Source: Fibrobacterota bacterium
Lineage (GTDB): Bacteria; Fibrobacterota; Fibrobacteria; UBA11236
Assembly (NCBI GenBank): GCA_023249635.1
Contig: JAHFCH010000011.1
Span: 671 to 64,670 of the forward strand
Direction of reading: 5' to 3'
DNA: 64,000 bases
The translations under genes were made by a program, and so were the position numbers. Under the pieces are notes generated by a model. That model made no database searches, was not told the origin of the DNA, and saw only the letters and a list, made by a program, of their open reading frames with translations. Below, piece by piece: positions 5,390 to 62,639 of this stretch (within the stretch, counting starts at the first letter, position 1; every line of letters begins with the position of its first letter).

Positions 5390-5464
5390 TGGAGGCGACA
5401 AGCGGATTCGAACCGCTGAATAAAGCTTTTGCAGAGCTCTCCCTTACCACTTGGGTATGTCGCC
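5390..5464 (-). tRNA. tRNA-Cys (anticodon GCA)
   Basis: Reverse complement reads GGCGACA..TTCGAATCC..TGTCGCC-T-CCA. Acceptor stem pairs 7/7; T-arm AGCGG/TTCGAAT/CCGCT; anticodon stem GAGCT/AGCTT with loop CTGCAAA (anticodon GCA); U discriminator typical of tRNA-Cys; encoded CCA. Confidence 0.75.
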
Positions 5465-20249: not shown

Positions 20250-21437
20250 ATGACGTATTCAGAGAAACCCATGATCCTGGTGGTGGAAGATTCCCGCGTG
20301 CTCGCCAAGGTGATCGAGCAACGGCTTTCGCCCAGTTTTCGGGTGGCCATGGCGCATGACGGCGAGGATGCCCTCCGGCAATTGGCCGCCGGCGGTTACG
20401 CCGCCGTGGTTCTCGATCTCGTGCTCCCCAAGATGGACGGATTCGAAGTCCTTCGCGCCATGCGCCAGCAAGGCATTTCCATTCCGGTGATCATCGCCAC
20501 GGCAAAGCCGCGCCAGGCTGTGGAAGGCGATGCCAAGGAATTCGGGGTGGAAGCCATTCTCTCCAAGCCCCTCGATTACGGGGTGCTGACCGATATGCTG
20601 CAGCAGGCGATTTCCAAATCGTCGGCGATGACGGTGGAAGAAGCTGAAGTCAACCGGGCGACCGGCAAGAAGTATCCCTTCCGCCTGGCCAAGCGATGCT
20701 GCTACATCTGCGGATACGAGAAGGTCCAGGTATTCCTGCCTATCAAGGAAGGCTATGTTGAGGATTGGAACCGCGGCTCCTTTCCCCAATACACCAGCAA
20801 GCCCGGTTACGAGGATTGGGATCATCTCAAGACCCTCGTCATGGTCTGCCCGTATTGCTTTTTCGCATCGTCCGATCCCGCCGATTTCGCGGACAGCAAA
20901 GACGCGTCCTACCCTTACAGCGAAGAGTCCAAAAAGATCCTGGCCCGGAGTATTTCCATCCGCAAGCGGCTGGTGCCCGAAGCCCTGGATATCGACCCGC
21001 GCTTCGATCATCCCTACCGCGATCGCGATACCGTGGTGGTGTCCCTGGTGCTGGCGGAAAAATGCTGCAACGGTCTCATCCTGGCCGGCAAGCCCGGTGC
21101 GTATTGCCAGGCAGGCGTGTATACCACCCTGCAGGGCGCGCTCAATTCTTCCACTGCGGAGAAGTACTATCGCGAAGGCTTGATGAGCTTCGAGAACCAA
21201 CTGAAGCATAAGGAGAGCCCCCGGCGCGTGCTGGTACGGACTTACTTCTTCTGCATAGTCCTGAACATGCAGCTCAACCGCACCATCGTCGGCCGCGATA
21301 TCATGAAAAAGGTCGAGGAACTTTACGCCGACGCCCGCTACGAGGAAATCAGCGACGAAGAGCGGGAGTGGCTGATGCGCATCAACCTCATCTGGAAGAA
21401 CGGCTGCGGGTCGGGAGTGCCCCGGGATATCGTGTGA
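20250..21437 (+). CDS. Response regulator: CheY-like receiver fused to a double CxxC zinc-ribbon plus helical output domain (DUF2225-like from memory)
   Basis: Receiver (LVVEDS.., phospho-acceptor D in VVLDLVLPKMDG, K in ILSKP); C-terminal CCYICGYE..x35..CPYCFF plus helical region; no DNA-binding or enzymatic output recognisable. Confidence 0.6.
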   Translation: MTYSEKPMILVVEDSRVLAKVIEQRLSPSFRVAMAHDGEDALRQLAAGGYAAVVLDLVLPKMDGFEVLRAMRQQGISIPVIIATAKPRQAVEGDAKEFGVEAILSKPLDYGVLTDMLQQAISKSSAMTVEEAEVNRATGKKYPFRLAKRCCYICGYEKVQVFLPIKEGYVEDWNRGSFPQYTSKPGYEDWDHLKTLVMVCPYCFFASSDPADFADSKDASYPYSEESKKILARSISIRKRLVPEALDIDPRFDHPYRDRDTVVVSLVLAEKCCNGLILAGKPGAYCQAGVYTTLQGALNSSTAEKYYREGLMSFENQLKHKESPRRVLVRTYFFCIVLNMQLNRTIVGRDIMKKVEELYADARYEEISDEEREWLMRINLIWKNGCGSGVPRDIV

Positions 21438-22513
21438 AACCGGCCGCTGCCAAGCCGCCCTCCTTCGTCGTACATAATTCCAATTCCGAAATCGGCGGAG
21501 CCGAAGCCAGTCTGCTTGCGGCTGTGGCGGTAAACCTCGCGACCGTAGCCGATGCCCGACCGCTTTTCCTGGTACCCGCCGAAGGCGGCCTTTCCCGCGC
21601 CCTTACCGCGCGCGGCTGGGAGTTCCGCGTCCTGCCATGGCCTCGCGGCCTCGCAGCCCTGACCCAGCGGCGTTTGTGGTCGCTGCCCTTGGCTTTGCCG
21701 GGACTGTTGCCTTACCTGTGGCGCTTGCGGGGGGTTTTCCGGGATGCGGACTCCATCTGGTCCAGCGGCGTCAAAAGCCATTTCGCCTGCCTGCTGCTTT
21801 CGCCCTGGCTGCGCGGCCGGCTCCTCTTTGACGTGCGCGATTTCTTCCGCAACCGGCTCATCCGCCGCTCCCTGGCCTTCGCCTCCGCGCGCTTCGGCTG
21901 CCGTATCGCCGCCAACAGCCGGGCCGTGGCCGCGGATTATCCCGGCGCCGAGGTACGTTACCCGCAGGTTACGCTGCGACGTCCCGCCGTGGACCGCCGG
22001 GTTCCTTCTGGACGTCGCGTAATCGCCCACTTGGCCTACTTCGCCCCCTACAAGGGCCAGCATCTGTTCCTGGATTGCGCCCGGGCCCTGCTCGACGCGG
22101 GCGTGGACGCCGAATTCCTGATCATCGGGGACGTGATTTATCCCGCCGAGTCGTATGCGCGCTATCGCGAAGAGCTGTTCGCCCAGGTAGGCCGCTTGCG
22201 CCTTAACGAGCACGTGCGTTTCCTGGGGAAGCTGGATGGCCCGGAGGCGGTACAGGAGATACTGGAGCGGACCGATCTGCTGCTGCACTGCACCACCGAA
22301 CCCGAACCCTTCGGCCGCGCGGTGATGGAAGCCCTGCTATGCGGGTGCGCAGCGGTATGCCATGGGGGCAGCGGCGTGTGTGAGGTGACGGAAGCGGAGC
22401 GGGGATTCCCGGGGTGGATGGGACCGCTCGGGAAGGTGTTGGGGGAGGAGTACGTGAGGGTGCGGTTGAGTGACGATATCGTCGGGCGTCGGGCGTCGGG
22501 CGTCGGGCGTTAA
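21434..22513 (+). CDS. Glycosyltransferase family 1 (GT4-type); 3' end runs into a repeat element
   Basis: GTG start overlapping the upstream stop (GTGA); C-terminal GT1 core (EPFGRAVMEALLCGCAAVC); last ~12 codons (..VGRRASGVGR) are encoded by GTCGGGC heptads of the palindromic element. Confidence 0.6.
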   Translation: MKPAAAKPPSFVVHNSNSEIGGAEASLLAAVAVNLATVADARPLFLVPAEGGLSRALTARGWEFRVLPWPRGLAALTQRRLWSLPLALPGLLPYLWRLRGVFRDADSIWSSGVKSHFACLLLSPWLRGRLLFDVRDFFRNRLIRRSLAFASARFGCRIAANSRAVAADYPGAEVRYPQVTLRRPAVDRRVPSGRRVIAHLAYFAPYKGQHLFLDCARALLDAGVDAEFLIIGDVIYPAESYARYREELFAQVGRLRLNEHVRFLGKLDGPEAVQEILERTDLLLHCTTEPEPFGRAVMEALLCGCAAVCHGGSGVCEVTEAERGFPGWMGPLGKVLGEEYVRVRLSDDIVGRRASGVGR

Positions 22514-22599
22514 AACTGTGGATTGGTCCTTGTGCGGATTCCCGTTTTAACGCCCGACGCCTAGCCGCGCAGCGGCGTACGCCCGACGCCCGACGATAT
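22475..22599. repeat. MITE/REP-like palindromic element, GTCGGGC-heptad family, copy 1
   Basis: Perfect 20-bp terminal inverted repeats (GATATCGTCGGGCGTCGGGCG .. CGCCCGACGCCCGACGATAT); nested perfect 16-bp inverted repeat (CGTCGGGCGTTAAAAC/GTTTTAACGCCCGACG); extra small hairpin GCCGCgcaGCGGC; four tandem GTCGGGC heptads. Confidence 0.75.
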
Positions 22600-22632
22600 G
22601 CCTGAACGGGAATATCTCATTCCAGCACCGGA

Positions 22633-57150: not shown

Positions 57151-58596
57151 CTAGCTCTTACGTGCCAACCCCGAGCCGCCTTTACGGTCCGCGCCTTCGC
57201 CGCCTAACCGCAGTTCCTTCCCGTTAATCCCCAGCTTCTTCATTTTGTTATGGAGTGCTGTGCGGGTTATTTCCATGACCTTTGCGGCTTCGGACACGCT
57301 CCAGCCGCAGTTTTGCAGGCGCGCGAGCACGAAATCCCTCTCGATTTTCCGTAGATGCCCCTTGAGGGTAGGGTATGTCTGCGTGTCCAGCGCTACCACC
57401 AAAGCTTGCCCGTTCGGCGCGGTTGCCGATTTGAGATAGGCCTCCACTTCGGACCGGCTGATCAGCGGGCCCTTGGCGAAGGAAATGCCGCGCTGAATGA
57501 TGTTCTCCAGCTCGCGGATATTCCCCGGAAAGGAATAGCCCGAAAGCAGTTCCATGGCGTCGTCGCCCAGGCCTACCTTGGCCGCGTGGCGCTTTTGGTG
57601 TTTGGCCAGGAAATGCCGTACCAGTTGCGGTACGTCCGCGATGCGCGCGCGCAAGGGCGGCAGCCCGATGGGTATGACATTGAGCCGGTAGTACAGGTCC
57701 TCGCGGAAATGTCCCGACTTGATGGCCTCTTCCAGGTTGCGGTTGGTGGCCGCGATCACGCGCACGTTCACGTGCCGCACCTTGTTCTCACCCACGCGGC
57801 GGAACTCGCCTTCCTGCAGGATGCGCAGCAGCTTGGTCTGGCTGCGTAAAGGGATATCGCCGATCTCGTCCAGGAAAATGGTGCCGTTATCCGCCACCTC
57901 GAACAAACCTTCGCGATCGCCGACCGCGCCCGAGAAGGCGCCCTTGGCATGGCCGAACAATTCGCTCTCGATCAGGCCTTCGGAGATGGCGCAGCAATTG
58001 ACGATCACGAAACCATGCGCGGCGGCGTTGGCTTCGGCGCTGTAGATGGCGCGCGCCACCAATTCCTTGCCCGTGCCGCTTTCCCCGCGGATGAGCACGT
58101 GGCCTTTGGAATGCCGGGCCTTATCGATGAGCCGGAACACCTCCTGCATCGGCTCCGACGCGCCGATGATGTTCTGCGCGGCGTAGCCCTCGGCGCCCAG
58201 CTTGGCCAGGGGTCCGGTCTTGGCGCGCGTGCTCTTCTCGAAGGTCTTCCCGAGCGCCGCGTGCAACTGATCGGGATTGACCGGCTTGAGTAGGTAGTCG
58301 TCCGCGCCGATGGTTTGGGCCTTGCGGGCCACGTCGTAGGAGCCATGCGCGGTGAGGATGAAGACGGGCAGATCGGGCTGCAGTTGCTTGACCCGGCGGA
58401 CAAGCGCGAAGCCGTCGATGCCGGGCATCACCAGGTCGGTGATGATAAGGCTGAATTTGCGGCGCCCCAATTGCTCCAGGGCCTCTTCGCCATTCTGGGC
58501 CAGATGCACGTCGTAGCCGGCCGCCGTGAGGATATCCTTCAGGTAGAAGGCGGTGATCTTCTCGTCGTCGACGATGAGGATGGAGAGGTTATCCAT
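57151..58596 (-). CDS. Sigma-54-dependent response regulator (NtrC/Fis family enhancer-binding protein)
   Basis: Receiver (DDEKI.., D in IITDLVMPGIDG), AAA+ sigma-54 interaction domain (GESGTGKE, GAFSGA), C-terminal Fis-type HTH. Confidence 0.85.
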   Translation of the reverse strand: MDNLSILIVDDEKITAFYLKDILTAAGYDVHLAQNGEEALEQLGRRKFSLIITDLVMPGIDGFALVRRVKQLQPDLPVFILTAHGSYDVARKAQTIGADDYLLKPVNPDQLHAALGKTFEKSTRAKTGPLAKLGAEGYAAQNIIGASEPMQEVFRLIDKARHSKGHVLIRGESGTGKELVARAIYSAEANAAAHGFVIVNCCAISEGLIESELFGHAKGAFSGAVGDREGLFEVADNGTIFLDEIGDIPLRSQTKLLRILQEGEFRRVGENKVRHVNVRVIAATNRNLEEAIKSGHFREDLYYRLNVIPIGLPPLRARIADVPQLVRHFLAKHQKRHAAKVGLGDDAMELLSGYSFPGNIRELENIIQRGISFAKGPLISRSEVEAYLKSATAPNGQALVVALDTQTYPTLKGHLRKIERDFVLARLQNCGWSVSEAAKVMEITRTALHNKMKKLGINGKELRLGGEGADRKGGSGLARKS

Positions 58597-60856
58597 GGGA
58601 TTGCCAGCTCTTCACCAACTCGGCGTAAATCTTCGGGTAGGTATTCAGCAGGTCCTTTTCGAAAGCCGCCATTCCCGTGCGCGGCTTGATGGTAAGCCGC
58701 GTCCCGTTGGGCAGGGCCACCTGGCGATTGAGGTTCTCACCGAACTTGCGCAGGATGGCGGGCACGGTCTCCAGGGTGGTCATGGGCAGAACCACGAGGA
58801 AACGATTGAAGGCCAGGTAGCCCACGAAATCGGACTCGCGCAGGAAGCGCCGCATGTCGCCGATGAGCACGTTCTGCAGGCCGCGCAGGGCATCGCCATG
58901 GGTATCGAAACCGGCCTTGTCCTCGGGCAGGCCTTGGAACGAGACCAGCAGGGCGCTGAAGGGAAGCTGGTAGCGCAGGGCCCGGCTGATTTCCGATTTG
59001 ATGAAGAAGTCGAGCACCGCTTTTACGTACACGCCTGCGGGTAATTCCTTGGAGGCGGCCTTTTCGCGGCGGGCCAGCATTTCCTGGCGCACTTTCTGCA
59101 TTACCTGGCTGCCGGCCTCTTTCGCGAGAGACTCCGGATCGAGACCTTCCCGGGCCCGTCCCAGGGTCTCGTCCATTTCCTTCTCGTCGCTGAACATCTC
59201 CAGCAGGAATTGGATCTTTTCCGCCTCGCTTACGCCTGTGTCCCGCATTTGCGCCATGGCGGCGCGTCCCTTGAGGTCGGTCACGGAACGTTGCATGCGC
59301 AGGCGGAGCTTCTGCTGGCCCATGGCCCGCAATTCCTCGGGCATGCCCTTATCCTGCAGCTTCTGGTTTACCTCCGCTTCCATCTGGTGCAACATGGTGC
59401 TCAGCTTGGCCGCTTCCCTGGGATTGGCGTCGATGCGCTCGCCCGCGGCCTCGCCGGCCTTCTCCACGAAATCGGCCAGGGAATTGATCATGTCCTCGGC
59501 CGAGCCCTCGCGATTCGACTTGCGGGCCTCGCTGGCGAGCACGATCAATTGGGCCGCTTGGCGCGGGTTCTCTTGCAATTCGCGCAGCAGCTCTTCCTGG
59601 CTTATGCCCAGGCTTTGCCCGGCCTGCAAGAACTCCTGATAGCTCTGGTCGGTGCCCAGCAGGGTATTCAGTTCGGCGAGCAGGTTGAAGAATTCGATCA
59701 AGGGCACGCCCTGCTTCAGCAACTCGGCCCGGAACAGGTTTAGCACCCGCTGCAGATGGGCGCGATCGGGCACGATGCGCTGCACCACCTGGGCCATACG
59801 CTTGGGATTGCCCTTGCACTTGCGGTACTCCTCCATCACCAGTTGCGCCGCCGTCTGGGTGAAGATATCGTCGGCGGCTTCGGCGAGGCGGCCGGCTTCG
59901 GCTACCTTGGCGGGATCGGGACGCGTCAGGGTGGGCAATCCCGATTCGGTGAGCTTGCCCGCGTTACCGCCTCCGCCCAGGTGCTGGGCAAGTCCCTGCT
60001 GGGCCTTCACGGCTTTCAGCAATTCGGATCGCATGCTGTACATGCCGGCCAGCAAATCCTCGATGGGCACATTGCCGGTGCCCGCTTCGGCGCGGAAGGC
60101 GCCCACCACGTTCAACAGGCTTTGCTTCAGGGACTGGGCCTCTTGCCCGGGGTTGGCCACCGTGTTCTTGAGGATGGCGTCCGGCAGGGCGGAAGGGCTT
60201 TCCAGCACCTTGAGCAGGCTCAGGTTGGCGTTCATTTCCTGCGCGGTGAGATGCCCCAATACCACGCGCATGGCCGCGTCATCAAAGGCGCTGTTGGCGC
60301 GGCGCAGTTCCCCGGAAAAAGTGCCTCCTGGGCCCGGGCCTCCGCCATCGGGCGAACCAGTTGGCCTGGGGCCGCCCGCCGGGTGGCTTCCACCTGCCGT
60401 GACGACTTCGTCGCCGGACTTTACCGTCTGCAGGCTTACGTTGTTCACGTTGAAACAGGTGATGCTCTGATTGGTCAGGTAAGCCAGGAAGCGCGCGGGA
60501 TCGGCATGGGTCATGCTGCAGGCGTCCAGAAAGCGGGCGAGCGCGCCCATGGAAACGGGCTGCGAGAAGGTGATGGACTCGATCCCGAAGCGGCGCAGGT
60601 GGTCGGCGATCTTCCGGTTGTTGGGCGCATACACCAGATCGACATGGCCGATGTAATACCCGAATTCCTGGAAGAGGATCGAAAGGGAAGCATCCTGGCC
60701 CAGGCATTTCGCGAAGGCTTCGTAAACGCGGGGAATGGTCTCTTGCGCGACGGGATGATCGAAAGCGTAGGCGACGGTGCGCTGGTAAAACAGATTTAGC
60801 AGCCGAACCAGGTTCTCGGCGTCGATACGGGAAAAGGCCTTGGTGTCCTGGTTCAT
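58589..60856 (-). CDS. Large signalling protein with C-terminal degenerate GGDEF domain (GGDEF replaced by AFNRF; I-site RESD retained)
   Basis: C-terminal approx 150 aa align to the diguanylate cyclase fold (..LLVSF..THGDALRGLQNVL..RESDFVGYLAFNRFLVVLP..); N-terminal 600 aa helical, no family recognised; 8-nt overlap with the sigma-54 regulator gene. Confidence 0.55.
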   Translation of the reverse strand: MNQDTKAFSRIDAENLVRLLNLFYQRTVAYAFDHPVAQETIPRVYEAFAKCLGQDASLSILFQEFGYYIGHVDLVYAPNNRKIADHLRRFGIESITFSQPVSMGALARFLDACSMTHADPARFLAYLTNQSITCFNVNNVSLQTVKSGDEVVTAGGSHPAGGPRPTGSPDGGGPGPGGTFSGELRRANSAFDDAAMRVVLGHLTAQEMNANLSLLKVLESPSALPDAILKNTVANPGQEAQSLKQSLLNVVGAFRAEAGTGNVPIEDLLAGMYSMRSELLKAVKAQQGLAQHLGGGGNAGKLTESGLPTLTRPDPAKVAEAGRLAEAADDIFTQTAAQLVMEEYRKCKGNPKRMAQVVQRIVPDRAHLQRVLNLFRAELLKQGVPLIEFFNLLAELNTLLGTDQSYQEFLQAGQSLGISQEELLRELQENPRQAAQLIVLASEARKSNREGSAEDMINSLADFVEKAGEAAGERIDANPREAAKLSTMLHQMEAEVNQKLQDKGMPEELRAMGQQKLRLRMQRSVTDLKGRAAMAQMRDTGVSEAEKIQFLLEMFSDEKEMDETLGRAREGLDPESLAKEAGSQVMQKVRQEMLARREKAASKELPAGVYVKAVLDFFIKSEISRALRYQLPFSALLVSFQGLPEDKAGFDTHGDALRGLQNVLIGDMRRFLRESDFVGYLAFNRFLVVLPMTTLETVPAILRKFGENLNRQVALPNGTRLTIKPRTGMAAFEKDLLNTYPKIYAELVKSWQSHG

Positions 60857-60945: not shown

Positions 60946-61878
60946 TTGGCCGCGATGGCCATCCCCGCCGCTTTACCCGATTTGACCGGCCAAACCCTGG
61001 GCACGGTTACCCTGCTCCAGAAGATCGGCGAAGGCAGCATGGGCGTGGTATACCGGGGTTTCCAGAACACCTTGAGCCGTCCCGTGGCGGTAAAGGTGGT
61101 CTTCCGCAACCGCCTCAACAAGCTTTTCACCTCGGAACGCTTCCGCCAAGAAGCCGAGGTGGTCGCCAACCTGTTGCATTCCAACATCGTGACCATTTTC
61201 GAATTCGGCGAGCAGCCCGACTTCATGTACTTCATCATGCAGTTGGTGGAGGGAGTCAACCTTTCGGCCTGGCTCAAGCAAAAGAAAAAGCACCCTTTGC
61301 CCCGCAAGCGCGTGCCCTCCATGGACGAATTGCTGCGGCTGGCGGAGCAGGTCCTTGAGGTACTGGCTTTCGCCCATGCCGAAGGCGTCATCCACCGGGA
61401 CATCAAGCCCGAGAACCTGCTCTGGATCGAAAAGAGCAGGAAGGTCTTGGTGGCCGATTTCGGCCTCGCGGCGGTGTACCATACCGTCTACGACGAAGAG
61501 AAGGCGTTTATCCTGGGGTCCCCGCTATACGTCTCGCCGGAGCAGGCCCGCGGGGAAACCGTGGACGGCCGGGCCGATCTCTTCTCCTTCGGCTGCGTGC
61601 TGTTGGAAATGACCCTGGGTTTCCTGCCCGTAAAGGTGGAGCGCCCGGAACGCATTTTCCAGACCCGGGCCAAGGAAAGCCCCGATATGTTCACCGGCAT
61701 GGCCCATGACCATAGCCCCGCCGTTCCCCGTCCCTGGAGCGATTTCGTGGCCAAGGCGTTGGTGGCGAAGCGGGACCAGCGGTATGCGGGAGCAGAGCAG
61801 ATGCTGACGGCACTGCGGAATATCGCGCCTGGGCTGCGGGCCGGCGACAAGGAGGATACGGGACAAGCTACGGCATAA
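60946..61878 (+). CDS. Hanks-type serine/threonine protein kinase (kinase domain only)
   Basis: IGEGSMGVVY Gly loop, VAVKVV Lys, HRDIKPENLL catalytic loop, DFGLA, SPE motif (YVSPEQ). Confidence 0.8.
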   Translation: MAAMAIPAALPDLTGQTLGTVTLLQKIGEGSMGVVYRGFQNTLSRPVAVKVVFRNRLNKLFTSERFRQEAEVVANLLHSNIVTIFEFGEQPDFMYFIMQLVEGVNLSAWLKQKKKHPLPRKRVPSMDELLRLAEQVLEVLAFAHAEGVIHRDIKPENLLWIEKSRKVLVADFGLAAVYHTVYDEEKAFILGSPLYVSPEQARGETVDGRADLFSFGCVLLEMTLGFLPVKVERPERIFQTRAKESPDMFTGMAHDHSPAVPRPWSDFVAKALVAKRDQRYAGAEQMLTALRNIAPGLRAGDKEDTGQATA

Positions 61879-61903
61879 AACGAGCCCGCGTTGGTTCGAG
61901 CGG

Positions 61904-62030
61904 CATATCGTCGGGCGTCGGGCGTACGGGGCGAAGCGCCCCTAAGCGTCGGGCGTAAATGCGAAAATGCTCCCATTTTCTTGCATTTACGCCCGACGCC
62001 GAACGCCCGACGCCAAACGATGCGCTGCTA
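61904..62030. repeat. MITE/REP-like palindromic element, GTCGGGC-heptad family, copy 2 (inverted orientation, more degenerate)
   Basis: CATATCGTCGGGCGTCGGGCG .. GGGGCGaagCGCCCC .. CGTCGGGCGTAAATGC / GCATTTACGCCCGACG .. CGCCCGACGCCAAACGATG; same terminal 20-mer as copy 1 on the left, degenerate on the right. Confidence 0.7.
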
Positions 62031-62117
62031 CCGACACCGTAGTGTCCAGTTCGCATCCAACCCTCTCGTACAATTTTTATCTTTGTCCCACCACCATCGA
62101 TCAGGGGATCCCCTCAC

Positions 62118-62639
62118 ATGACCCAAGAGGCCACCGGCGCCGGCAAAGACGATATGCTCGAAAGCATGCTCAAAGGCCTTCGCGAGGATGAAATCGGGGT
62201 GCTGGATCGGTTTACCGACTACCAGAAATCCACCGCTCCCTTTTTCGAAAAGGTCGAAGTCGCCCACGAGTTCCTGGATCTGCTCACCTTCAAGATCAAG
62301 GAGAGCAAGTCGAAGATGAACAAGGAACTGCTCGCGCAGTTCTCCCTGGCCTTCCTCCGCCAGACCGTCCGCACCTACGGCTACAATCCCAAGTTCGTCG
62401 CCACCCAGGCCAAGGCCCTCATCACCTATTACCAGAACCAGAAGAACCTGGAGAGGGCCATCGAGGTTTGCGAATTCCTGATCCTACAGGGCATCACCGA
62501 TGACGATGCCAAGGGATTCCACGTCCGTCTCGACGAGTTGTACCGCCTCAAGCGGAAGATCGAGGAAAAGGGCGGGGATATTTCGGGGATCAGCTTTCCG
62601 ACCATGGATGATGATGAGTCGGATGATTCTGAAGAGTGA
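62118..62639 (+). CDS. Hypothetical protein with acidic C-terminal tail
   Basis: CAGGGGA RBS; 173 aa; ends DDDESDDSEE; followed by a perfect 7-bp hairpin GCAGAACtaagagtGTTCTGC. Confidence 0.45.
   Translation: MTQEATGAGKDDMLESMLKGLREDEIGVLDRFTDYQKSTAPFFEKVEVAHEFLDLLTFKIKESKSKMNKELLAQFSLAFLRQTVRTYGYNPKFVATQAKALITYYQNQKNLERAIEVCEFLILQGITDDDAKGFHVRLDELYRLKRKIEEKGGDISGISFPTMDDDESDDSEE

Follow-up and report, generated by a model that had tools for sequence, protein, structure and literature searches.

A hairpin-forming repeat of about 125 bases, built on GTCGGGC heptads, lies between a Ser/Thr protein kinase gene and the next gene of the window, by which we mean the whole 64-kb stretch of DNA that was analysed. 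The kinase gene ends with a TAA stop codon at 61876-61878, 25-26 nt 5' of the repeat, and the downstream gene begins with the ATG at 62118, about 88-94 nt 3' of it; these distances match the 26 and roughly 90 nt stated in an earlier note on this DNA. The repeat occupies precisely the interval that separates the kinase stop codon from the promoter-like box of the downstream gene. It is termed copy 2 here, and a second element of the same family elsewhere in the window is termed copy 1. Two other public assemblies contain an identical copy 2 stretch, which excludes an artefact of assembly. The features are as follows:

60946-61878, plus strand: Ser/Thr protein kinase gene (open reading frame; Pfam Pkinase, E = 6e-47)
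61899-62029, plus strand: whole copy 2, including a 5-6 bp flank pairing AGCGGC/GCGCTGCT (folds, inverted repeats)
61903-62030, plus strand: covariance-model match of copy 2, 108.5 bits
61905-62024, plus strand: core of copy 2
61905-61926, plus strand: 5' arm of the outer stem P1 (G-rich), ATATC, two GTCGGGC units and GTA, inside a 27-nt run identical to the minus strand of copy 1
61928-61942, plus strand: side hairpin P2, GGGGCG-aag-CGCCCC, GGGGCGaagCGCCCC (fold)
61946-61962, plus strand: 5' arm of the inner hairpin P3, one heptad GCGTCGGGCG and the AT-rich extension TAAATGC, together GCGTCGGGCGTAAATGC (inverted repeat, fold)
61963-61982, plus strand: apex of P3, a weak AU-rich mini-hairpin GAAAATG-ctcc-CATTTTC, then TT; variable region of the family (fold)
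61983-61999, plus strand: 3' arm of P3, GCATTTA and CGCCCGACGC, together GCATTTACGCCCGACGC (inverted repeat, fold)
62003-62024, plus strand: 3' arm of P1 (C-rich, slightly degenerate), ACGCCCGACGCCAAACGATGCG
62050-62085, plus strand: putative promoter-like stretch of the downstream gene, TTCGCA, 16 nt, AATTTT, then TATCTTTG; T-rich box conserved in relatives
62118-62639, plus strand: downstream gene, 173-aa conserved hypothetical protein without Pfam match (open reading frame)
22472-22603, minus strand: copy 1, same family, side hairpin set 5' of the inner hairpin; covariance-model match of 117.4 bits on the minus strand

The T-rich box upstream of the 173-aa gene reads TATCTTTG in the window and TAAGTTTG/A in relatives (L091 about 1725-1745), and resembles TAnnTTTG, the -7 element of Bacteroidetes-type promoters. 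At the same place, two relatives carry a sigma-70-like TTGACA-16-TATTTT (L088 2911-2938). The 173-aa protein has 157 homologues, mostly in Fibrobacteria MAGs, and its gene is always preceded by the kinase gene and by a gene for a 731-755-aa protein (window 58589-60856), which is likewise without a Pfam match in the relatives' gene tables; the three genes form a conserved neighbourhood. Between the kinase stop codon and copy 2, a terminator-like hairpin with a T-run (GCTCGAACCAACGCGGGC then TCGTTTTATG) is found on the minus strand at 61884-61901, which would stop antisense transcription coming from the side of copy 2.

Copy 2 is predicted to fold into a three-way junction composed of the outer heptad stem P1, the GC hairpin P2 and the inner hairpin P3, in the last of which a heptad and an AT-rich extension lead to a variable loop. 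In-silico folding, which the earlier note had proposed, yields about -95 kcal/mol for copy 2 (-94.9 kcal/mol, z -10.4, for the plus-strand RNA; -93.1 kcal/mol, z -12.0, for the minus-strand RNA; -59.4 kcal/mol, z = -9.9, for DNA). Overall, the z-scores range from -10 to -13 as RNA and from -10 to -12 as DNA, and none of 200 shuffled sequences folds as well. The inner inverted repeat (61946-61962 with 61983-61999, GCGTCGGGCGTAAATGC/GCATTTACGCCCGACGC) is perfect over 17 bp and was extended by a repeat search to 22-nt arms pairing at 91%. The weak AU hairpin at the apex of P3 is followed by TTGCATTT. The right outer arm, ACGCCCGACGCCAAACGATGCG, departs from a perfect complement at 2 nt of its last heptad, plus the flank.

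Copy 1 overlaps the stop codon of a glycosyltransferase open reading frame (21368-22513), and its plus strand displays the modules of copy 2 in reverse order. Aligned with the minus strand of copy 1, the plus strand of copy 2 is 69% identical and includes a 27-nt identical run, GGCATATCGTCGGGCGTCGGGCGTACG, versus 58% identity on the same strand; the number of shared 26-mers expected by chance in 64 kb is about 1e-6. The covariance model described below gives the same relative orientation, scoring copy 2 at 108.5 bits on the plus versus 79.2 bits on the minus strand, and copy 1 at 117.4 bits on the minus versus 89.3 bits on the plus strand. The description of 61904-62030 in the earlier note as a second copy of a heptad palindrome, inverted and with a mirrored layout, is thus borne out. 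Nor is the similarity limited to the simple GTCGGGC repeats, as both copies share the GGCATATC flank, a GTAC junction and a CTA[A/G]GCG junction, as well as the place of the GC side hairpin and of the AT-rich stem extension. Within this common plan the sequences diverge: the side hairpins differ and both fold (GGGGCG/CGCCCC in copy 2, GCCGC/GCGGC in copy 1), the AT-rich extensions differ and both pair (TAAATGC/GCATTTA in copy 2, TTAAAAC/GTTTTAA in copy 1), and the loops are unrelated. Because their side-hairpin and loop sequences are unrelated, the two copies are not recent duplicates of one master copy. The bare heptad has 26 matches in the window versus 21.8 expected, 12 of them inside the two elements and 14 elsewhere; the heptad alone is not enriched outside the elements, and therefore the non-random part is the composite element.

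Further members were sought by scanning one genome per species for GCGTCGGGCGT-N20-50-ACGCCCGACGC. The architecture recurs in the MAG “Fibrobacteres bacterium RYN_348” (GCA_028287505.1), and a metagenome scan for the inner-hairpin pattern returned one further contig only, JADMIO010841918, with two copies. Altogether, 14 copies are known from three Fibrobacteria genomes or contigs, i.e., the window, RYN_348 and JADMIO010841918, and the flanking proteins have homologues in MAGs labelled Fibrobacteria or Fibrobacteres. A covariance model built on 11 copies recovered all 11 and one more, and found no match in about 36 kb of loci from relatives without the element. Two copies each occur in the 64-kb window, in 21 kb of the RYN_348 locus L095 and in 10 kb of L093, the JADMIO010841918 locus.

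The arms are invariant, both in the 11 aligned copies and in all 14, and the interiors cannot be aligned yet fold. The 5' arm of each element is made of (GTCGGGC)1-4 and the 3' arm of its complement, and therefore either strand reads G-rich first and C-rich second. Heptad arrays comprise one unit in 19 cases, two in 11, three in 3 and four in 11; none has five or more. The termini are genome-specific, with GCATATC-GTCGGGCG in the window and nTTTC-GTCGGGCG...CGCCCGAC-GAAAyG elsewhere. Across the 14 copies the interior is 30-134 nt long, unalignable and always hairpin-forming, and it combines an optional GC side hairpin with an inner hairpin that opens with an AT-rich extension. The short side hairpin, with a 3-nt loop, is present in seven copies and occurs with four stem sequences, each self-complementary. 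The extension TAAATGC of copy 2 is also found in L093a, and TAAAATGCG in L095b. In several copies of RYN_348 and L093 the inner hairpin resembles a bidirectional intrinsic terminator, holding an A-run followed by a small GC hairpin and then a T-run, a layout that the two copies of the window do not have. RNAalifold on the family alignment found compensatory changes at 2 of 25 pairs; the heptad stems give no covariation signal because they never vary, and the covariation of P2 was taken from direct reading and not from a formal count, as MAFFT displaced the short side-hairpin segments.

Nearly all copies lie at gene ends: in 12 of the 14, the copy overlaps a stop codon or has its start 3-61 nt past one. 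They sit between convergent or co-directional housekeeping genes, including positions within apparent operons (sufS-nifU, an opp-type ABC transporter and ispD/F-argG). In all six scorable co-directional cases (copy 2, L093a, L093b, L044b, L080 and L095b) the side hairpin is on the side nearer to the gene ending upstream, an orientation bias that at about 0.03 (two-sided) is suggestive only. A GC-skew profile of element orientation versus replication direction was uninformative.

The kinase site is empty in relatives. In seven related genomes, in which the downstream protein is 78-91% identical, the orthologous spacer measures 66-132 nt and contains no heptads, as compared to 239 nt in the window, and the difference fits the length of the element; the spacers are unalignable, and only presence or absence and length were scored. 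This supports the inverted insertion of the same element envisaged in the earlier note. The T-rich box is kept in the relatives and lies 3' of copy 2 in the window, and therefore the element arrived as a unit, 3' of the kinase stop codon and 5' of the promoter region of the neighbour. Judged from these spacers, copy 2 is a lineage-specific insertion, gained whole after the split from the seven sampled relatives.

At the copy 1 site, two relatives have no element in the gap between the genes for the glycosyltransferase and a geranylgeranyl reductase, which measures 25 nt in one and 3 nt in the other. In RYN_348, which is about 82% identical to the window genome in protein sequence, an element with four 5' heptads occupies the same junction (...RL[S/K]DD, then heptads) and is oriented as copy 1 is. 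The arms of this element are identical to those of copy 1, and its loop and side hairpin are completely different; at this site, arms and fold persist, and the interior sequence does not. The three genomes compared are roughly equidistant (65-91% identity over five proteins). This pattern therefore requires that the element either was inserted long ago and later lost cleanly or was inserted more than once at one spot. The earlier note had taken the degenerate right repeat of copy 2 as the mark of an older copy. The arm is indeed degenerate, but the greater age does not follow: the site of copy 2 is empty in every relative examined, whereas that of copy 1 is also occupied in RYN_348, and if anything it is the copy 1 site that has been occupied for longer. 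Copy 1 also provides the glycosyltransferase with its last residues and stop codon (...DDIVGRRASGVGR*, window 22476-22513), and the RYN_348 orthologue likewise ends in its own element (...DDSSGVGRRASGEKTGKLSE*, L095 11040-11098); glycosyltransferase homologues without the element have different C-terminal ends.

Signs of mobility were looked for at and around the copies. No consistent direct repeat, as expected of a target-site duplication, was found at the 14 copies. An 8-nt direct repeat, GACGATAT, brackets copy 1 (window 22472-22479 and 22592-22599) and overlaps the terminus of the element, and GACGA brackets the RYN_348 element at the matching site. Such bracketing repeats are absent at the other copies, and they may reflect a target preference or a coincidence of Asp-Asp codons. 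No transposase adjoins any copy, and no parent insertion sequence with the same ends was found in the 64-kb window and the related loci. The genes between paired copies in L044 and L093 encode IspF, IspD, ArgG, NifU and a TubZ-like protein; the gene for the last, a member of the tubulin/FtsZ family, is situated between the two element copies of JADMIO010841918 (L093 8335-9693). A tblastn search with E. coli RayT, a probe of low sensitivity, detected no RayT-like open reading frame in the window and related loci (nothing below E = 0.08 overall; best E 1.5 in Fibrobacteria loci). Integron attC sites, retrons, DGRs and CRISPR were dropped as candidates, as there is no cassette array, reverse transcriptase, TR/VR pair or regular spacing.

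Searches for a known RNA or expression signal were likewise negative. Rfam at the gathering score yielded no match at either element, and a relaxed search gave only noise far below threshold (e.g., a miRNA model at 22.7 bits versus a cut-off of 150 bits). The sole gathering-score match of the window is a tRNA gene at 5393-5464 on the minus strand. No hairpin-plus-T-run terminator was seen on the plus strand in a scan of 61500-62400, and a sigma-70 promoter scan called none at copy 2, nor did it call the promoter-like stretch at 62050-62085. A stand-alone sRNA gene or a classical terminator is therefore not supported.

We consider it reasonably probable (roughly 0.65) that copy 2 belongs to a dispersed, lineage-restricted family of structured intergenic palindromes of the REPIN/BIME kind, which have G-rich heptad arms, are copied as a unit and act as a 3' structure once transcribed. 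This reading starts from the observed architecture of the element, its membership of a family, its gain as a unit at the kinase site and its placement after a stop codon. The unit would be copied to new sites in trans, by an activity directed at the arms or at the folded single strand, and this activity may be of the RAYT/IS200 type, which leaves no terminal duplication, or recombinational. Transcribed together with the upstream kinase gene, the element would adopt its structure of about -95 kcal/mol and serve as a 3' barrier or attenuator, which would stabilise the 3' end of the kinase mRNA and would probably restrain exonucleolytic decay as well as read-through into the next transcription unit. 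Position and stability make such a function, as a barrier at the RNA 3' end or as an insulator, plausible. Counting against the REPIN/BIME-like reading are the arms, which are tandem heptads and not GTAG-headed imperfect palindromes, and the rarity of the family in public data, with a single contig in the metagenome scan. On the same side stand the lack of a discernible target-site duplication, the negative searches for a transposase or RAYT in the window and related loci and, for the RNA-level role, the absence of a hairpin-plus-U-tract terminator call in copy 2. Moreover, the shared occupancy of the copy 1 site could reflect vertical retention instead of mobility.

Other explanations account for parts of these data. 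The heptads could be quadruplex-forming, G-rich heptamer repeat pairs of the Xanthomonas GGGAATC type, the palindromic arrangement being secondary. The unit GGGCGTC fits G3N4, and the 11 largest arrays stop at exactly four units. However, the top strand of copy 2 carries only 2+1 heptads, and the modules other than heptads that copies 1 and 2 share imply that the unit spreads as a whole. ViennaRNA (gquad) predicted no G4 in the minimum free energy structures of transcripts, whether full or truncated, the stability of the full hairpin far exceeds that of any G4, and analogous heptad palindromes in other phyla, with GCGTCAG or GCGTCGTT units, lack G3 tracts; this explanation is rather unlikely. 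It is quite improbable that the element is a MITE, i.e., an internally deleted DDE-type insertion sequence moved by the transposase of its parent, with the heptad arrays as terminal inverted repeats. This idea would suit elements of 125-230 nt that end in long inverted repeats, vary in their interior and are present in some genomes and absent from others, but the 14 copies show no consistent target-site duplication, no transposase is enclosed by a pair of arms (housekeeping genes lie between the paired copies of L044 and L093), and arms that are internally repeated and nested, with an outer plus an inner pair, are unlike typical IS ends.

Two further explanations dispense with copying of the unit. 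A bidirectional terminator or insulator might have evolved locally, neither mobile nor copied, the likeness between copies resulting from convergent selection for strong GC stems. Such an origin would agree with the position after stop codons and before the next promoter-like box, with the A-run, GC hairpin and T-run in many inner hairpins of RYN_348 and L093, and with the occupancy, in two genomes, of the convergent site between the glycosyltransferase and geranylgeranyl-reductase genes. Yet a 27-nt identity that includes non-heptad flank at two unlinked loci cannot be convergent, the shared junction sequences speak against independent origin, the whole unit is absent from seven orthologous spacers and copy 2 has no T-run after any strong stem, all of which renders local origin very improbable. 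Scarcely credible is the idea that the heptads are protein-binding or uptake-signal sequences like the DUS of Neisseria or the USS of Haemophilus. DUS and USS often occur in inverted pairs forming terminators, and a short conserved motif in inverted pairs downstream of genes would fit, but uptake sequences are scattered at roughly one per kb, also inside genes, whereas only 14 heptads lie outside the elements as compared to about 21.8 expected for the whole window.

Palindromes with a GCGTC core were also observed beyond the Fibrobacterota, in soil MAGs of Gemmatimonadota, Acidobacteriota and Chloroflexota as well as in a Candidatus Uhrbacteria MAG. Palindromes with 7-nt GCGTCRG units (G-rich arm, loop, CYGACGC units) occur in soil MAGs of Acidobacteriota, Gemmatimonadota, Anaerolineales and Terriglobia (L009 4853-4955; L018 4273-4364; L024 5204-5312; L028 1460-1560; L041 6831-6983; L046 about 1505-1585; L048, L065, L072, L076, L077 and L078). 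The example in L041 (Gemmatimonadaceae) opens with ATCGTCGGGCG and four GTCGGGC units, exactly as copy 1 does, and that in L046 (Pyrinomonadaceae) has a GGGTAAAGA...TCTTTACCC core as in the Fibrobacteria copies, about 13 nt after a stop codon. The Uhrbacteria MAG (MFD03726.bin.1.68) matches the search pattern more than 35 times, at about 30 loci (L001-L003, L005, L007, L011, L013, L015, L016, L020, L023, L031, L033, L034, L037, L040, L042, L043, L045, L047, L049, L055, L056, L059, L061, L062, L067, L071, L079 and L082); its palindromes are perfect and form a dense family, in which units of 7 and 8 nt (GCGTCGG/GCGTCGTT) are mixed and surround a short loop of the CCGnnCGG type. Matches in Sphingobium and Sphingomonas (L004, L012, L014, L051, L057, L058, L063, L066, L070 and L075) are unrelated and represent one conserved 42-nt palindrome in a longer inverted repeat (cctgcacaagc...gcttgtgcagg); because it is often found at contig ends, it is probably the end of an insertion sequence or a MITE.

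It is conceivable, but we think it unlikely, that the Fibrobacteria element is the local form of a wider, undescribed class of GCGTC-core palindromes with 7-8-nt units, which place the G-rich arm first and lie just after stop codons. An unrecognised transposase or recombinase of single-strand DNA, common to several phyla, might act on such a class, or the class might represent a register-tolerant 3'-end module, a hairpin/G4 switch used in place of U-tract terminators.

In its general kind, the element falls among the known REP-like genomic repeats. It adds a repeat family to the Fibrobacterota, a phylum known here only from MAGs and for which no REPs or REP-like elements were found in the literature searched, and it links two types of repeats that are usually treated separately, the unit-spreading palindromes of the REPIN style and the G-rich heptamers of Xanthomonas capped at four units. 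The site between the glycosyltransferase and geranylgeranyl-reductase genes, filled in two genomes, offers a natural experiment in which selection appears to act on arms and fold and not on the interior sequence. On a practical note, assemblies break at such elements, proteins acquire C-terminal tails from them, as seen for the glycosyltransferase, and gene callers and RNA-motif screens can be misled.

The BIMEs of E. coli are set beside the REPINs for comparison. REPINs and REP-BIME elements have been treated by Bertels & Rainey 2011 (PMC3116915, PMC3337134); REPINs comprise two inverted conserved units, and no two of their spacers are alike, while all spacers form hairpins (PMC3337134). The Fibrobacteria family resembles them in having inverted conserved units around a copy-specific, hairpin-forming spacer, in its extragenic location at gene 3' ends and inside operons without target duplication, in its genome-specific variants and in the A/T runs beside the conserved units, which suggest co-option for attenuation. 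Typical REPs, however, are imperfect palindromes of 20-35 nt with a GTAG-type head in most described classes (REP table, PMC4690160), whereas the unit of the Fibrobacteria family is a tandem array of 7-nt repeats with (T/A)TC-GTCGGGCG termini and no GTAG. The family also differs in its fold, a nested three-way junction, and in that no RAYT was detected by tblastn, at low sensitivity, in the window and related loci.

The G-rich heptamers GGGAATC and GGGGAYT of Xanthomonas and Nostoc occur in arrays of up to 26 units, and their function is unknown (Rehm et al. 2015, PMC4692102). Common to them and the Fibrobacteria family are a 7-nt unit with a G3 tract, array lengths that favour or stop at four units, frequent convergent (inverted) pairs from which stem-loops can form, rarity between divergent genes and the lack of a link to IS elements. 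In both, sites are conserved among related genomes while lengths vary, and the G-rich strand is the coding strand within 50 bp of the stop codon. Yet the unit is GGGCGTC and not GGGNATC or GGGGAYT, the arrays never exceed four units, and the family adds a side hairpin, an AT-rich inner stem and shared non-repeat junctions; with these fixed extra modules and shared junctions, the whole composite would therefore be copied as one unit.

MITEs such as Correia/NEMIS, ERIC and RUP are intergenic, co-transcribed elements of about 100-200 nt, with terminal inverted repeats, strong RNA hairpins and presence/absence polymorphism. The Fibrobacteria elements are similar in their terminal inverted repeats, size, intergenic place, hairpins and polymorphism. 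Correia/NEMIS, ERIC and RUP have defined target duplications (TA for Correia) and largely conserved interiors, whereas in the Fibrobacteria family no duplication was seen and the interiors are unrelated between copies. Finally, Mazel et al. reportedly described in 1990 the STRR heptamer repeats of cyanobacteria as tandem arrays dispersed in intergenic DNA. The Fibrobacteria family shares with the STRRs the dispersed intergenic arrays of tandem heptanucleotides, but STRRs are mainly direct arrays, whereas the elements reported here are composite palindromes with nested hairpins.
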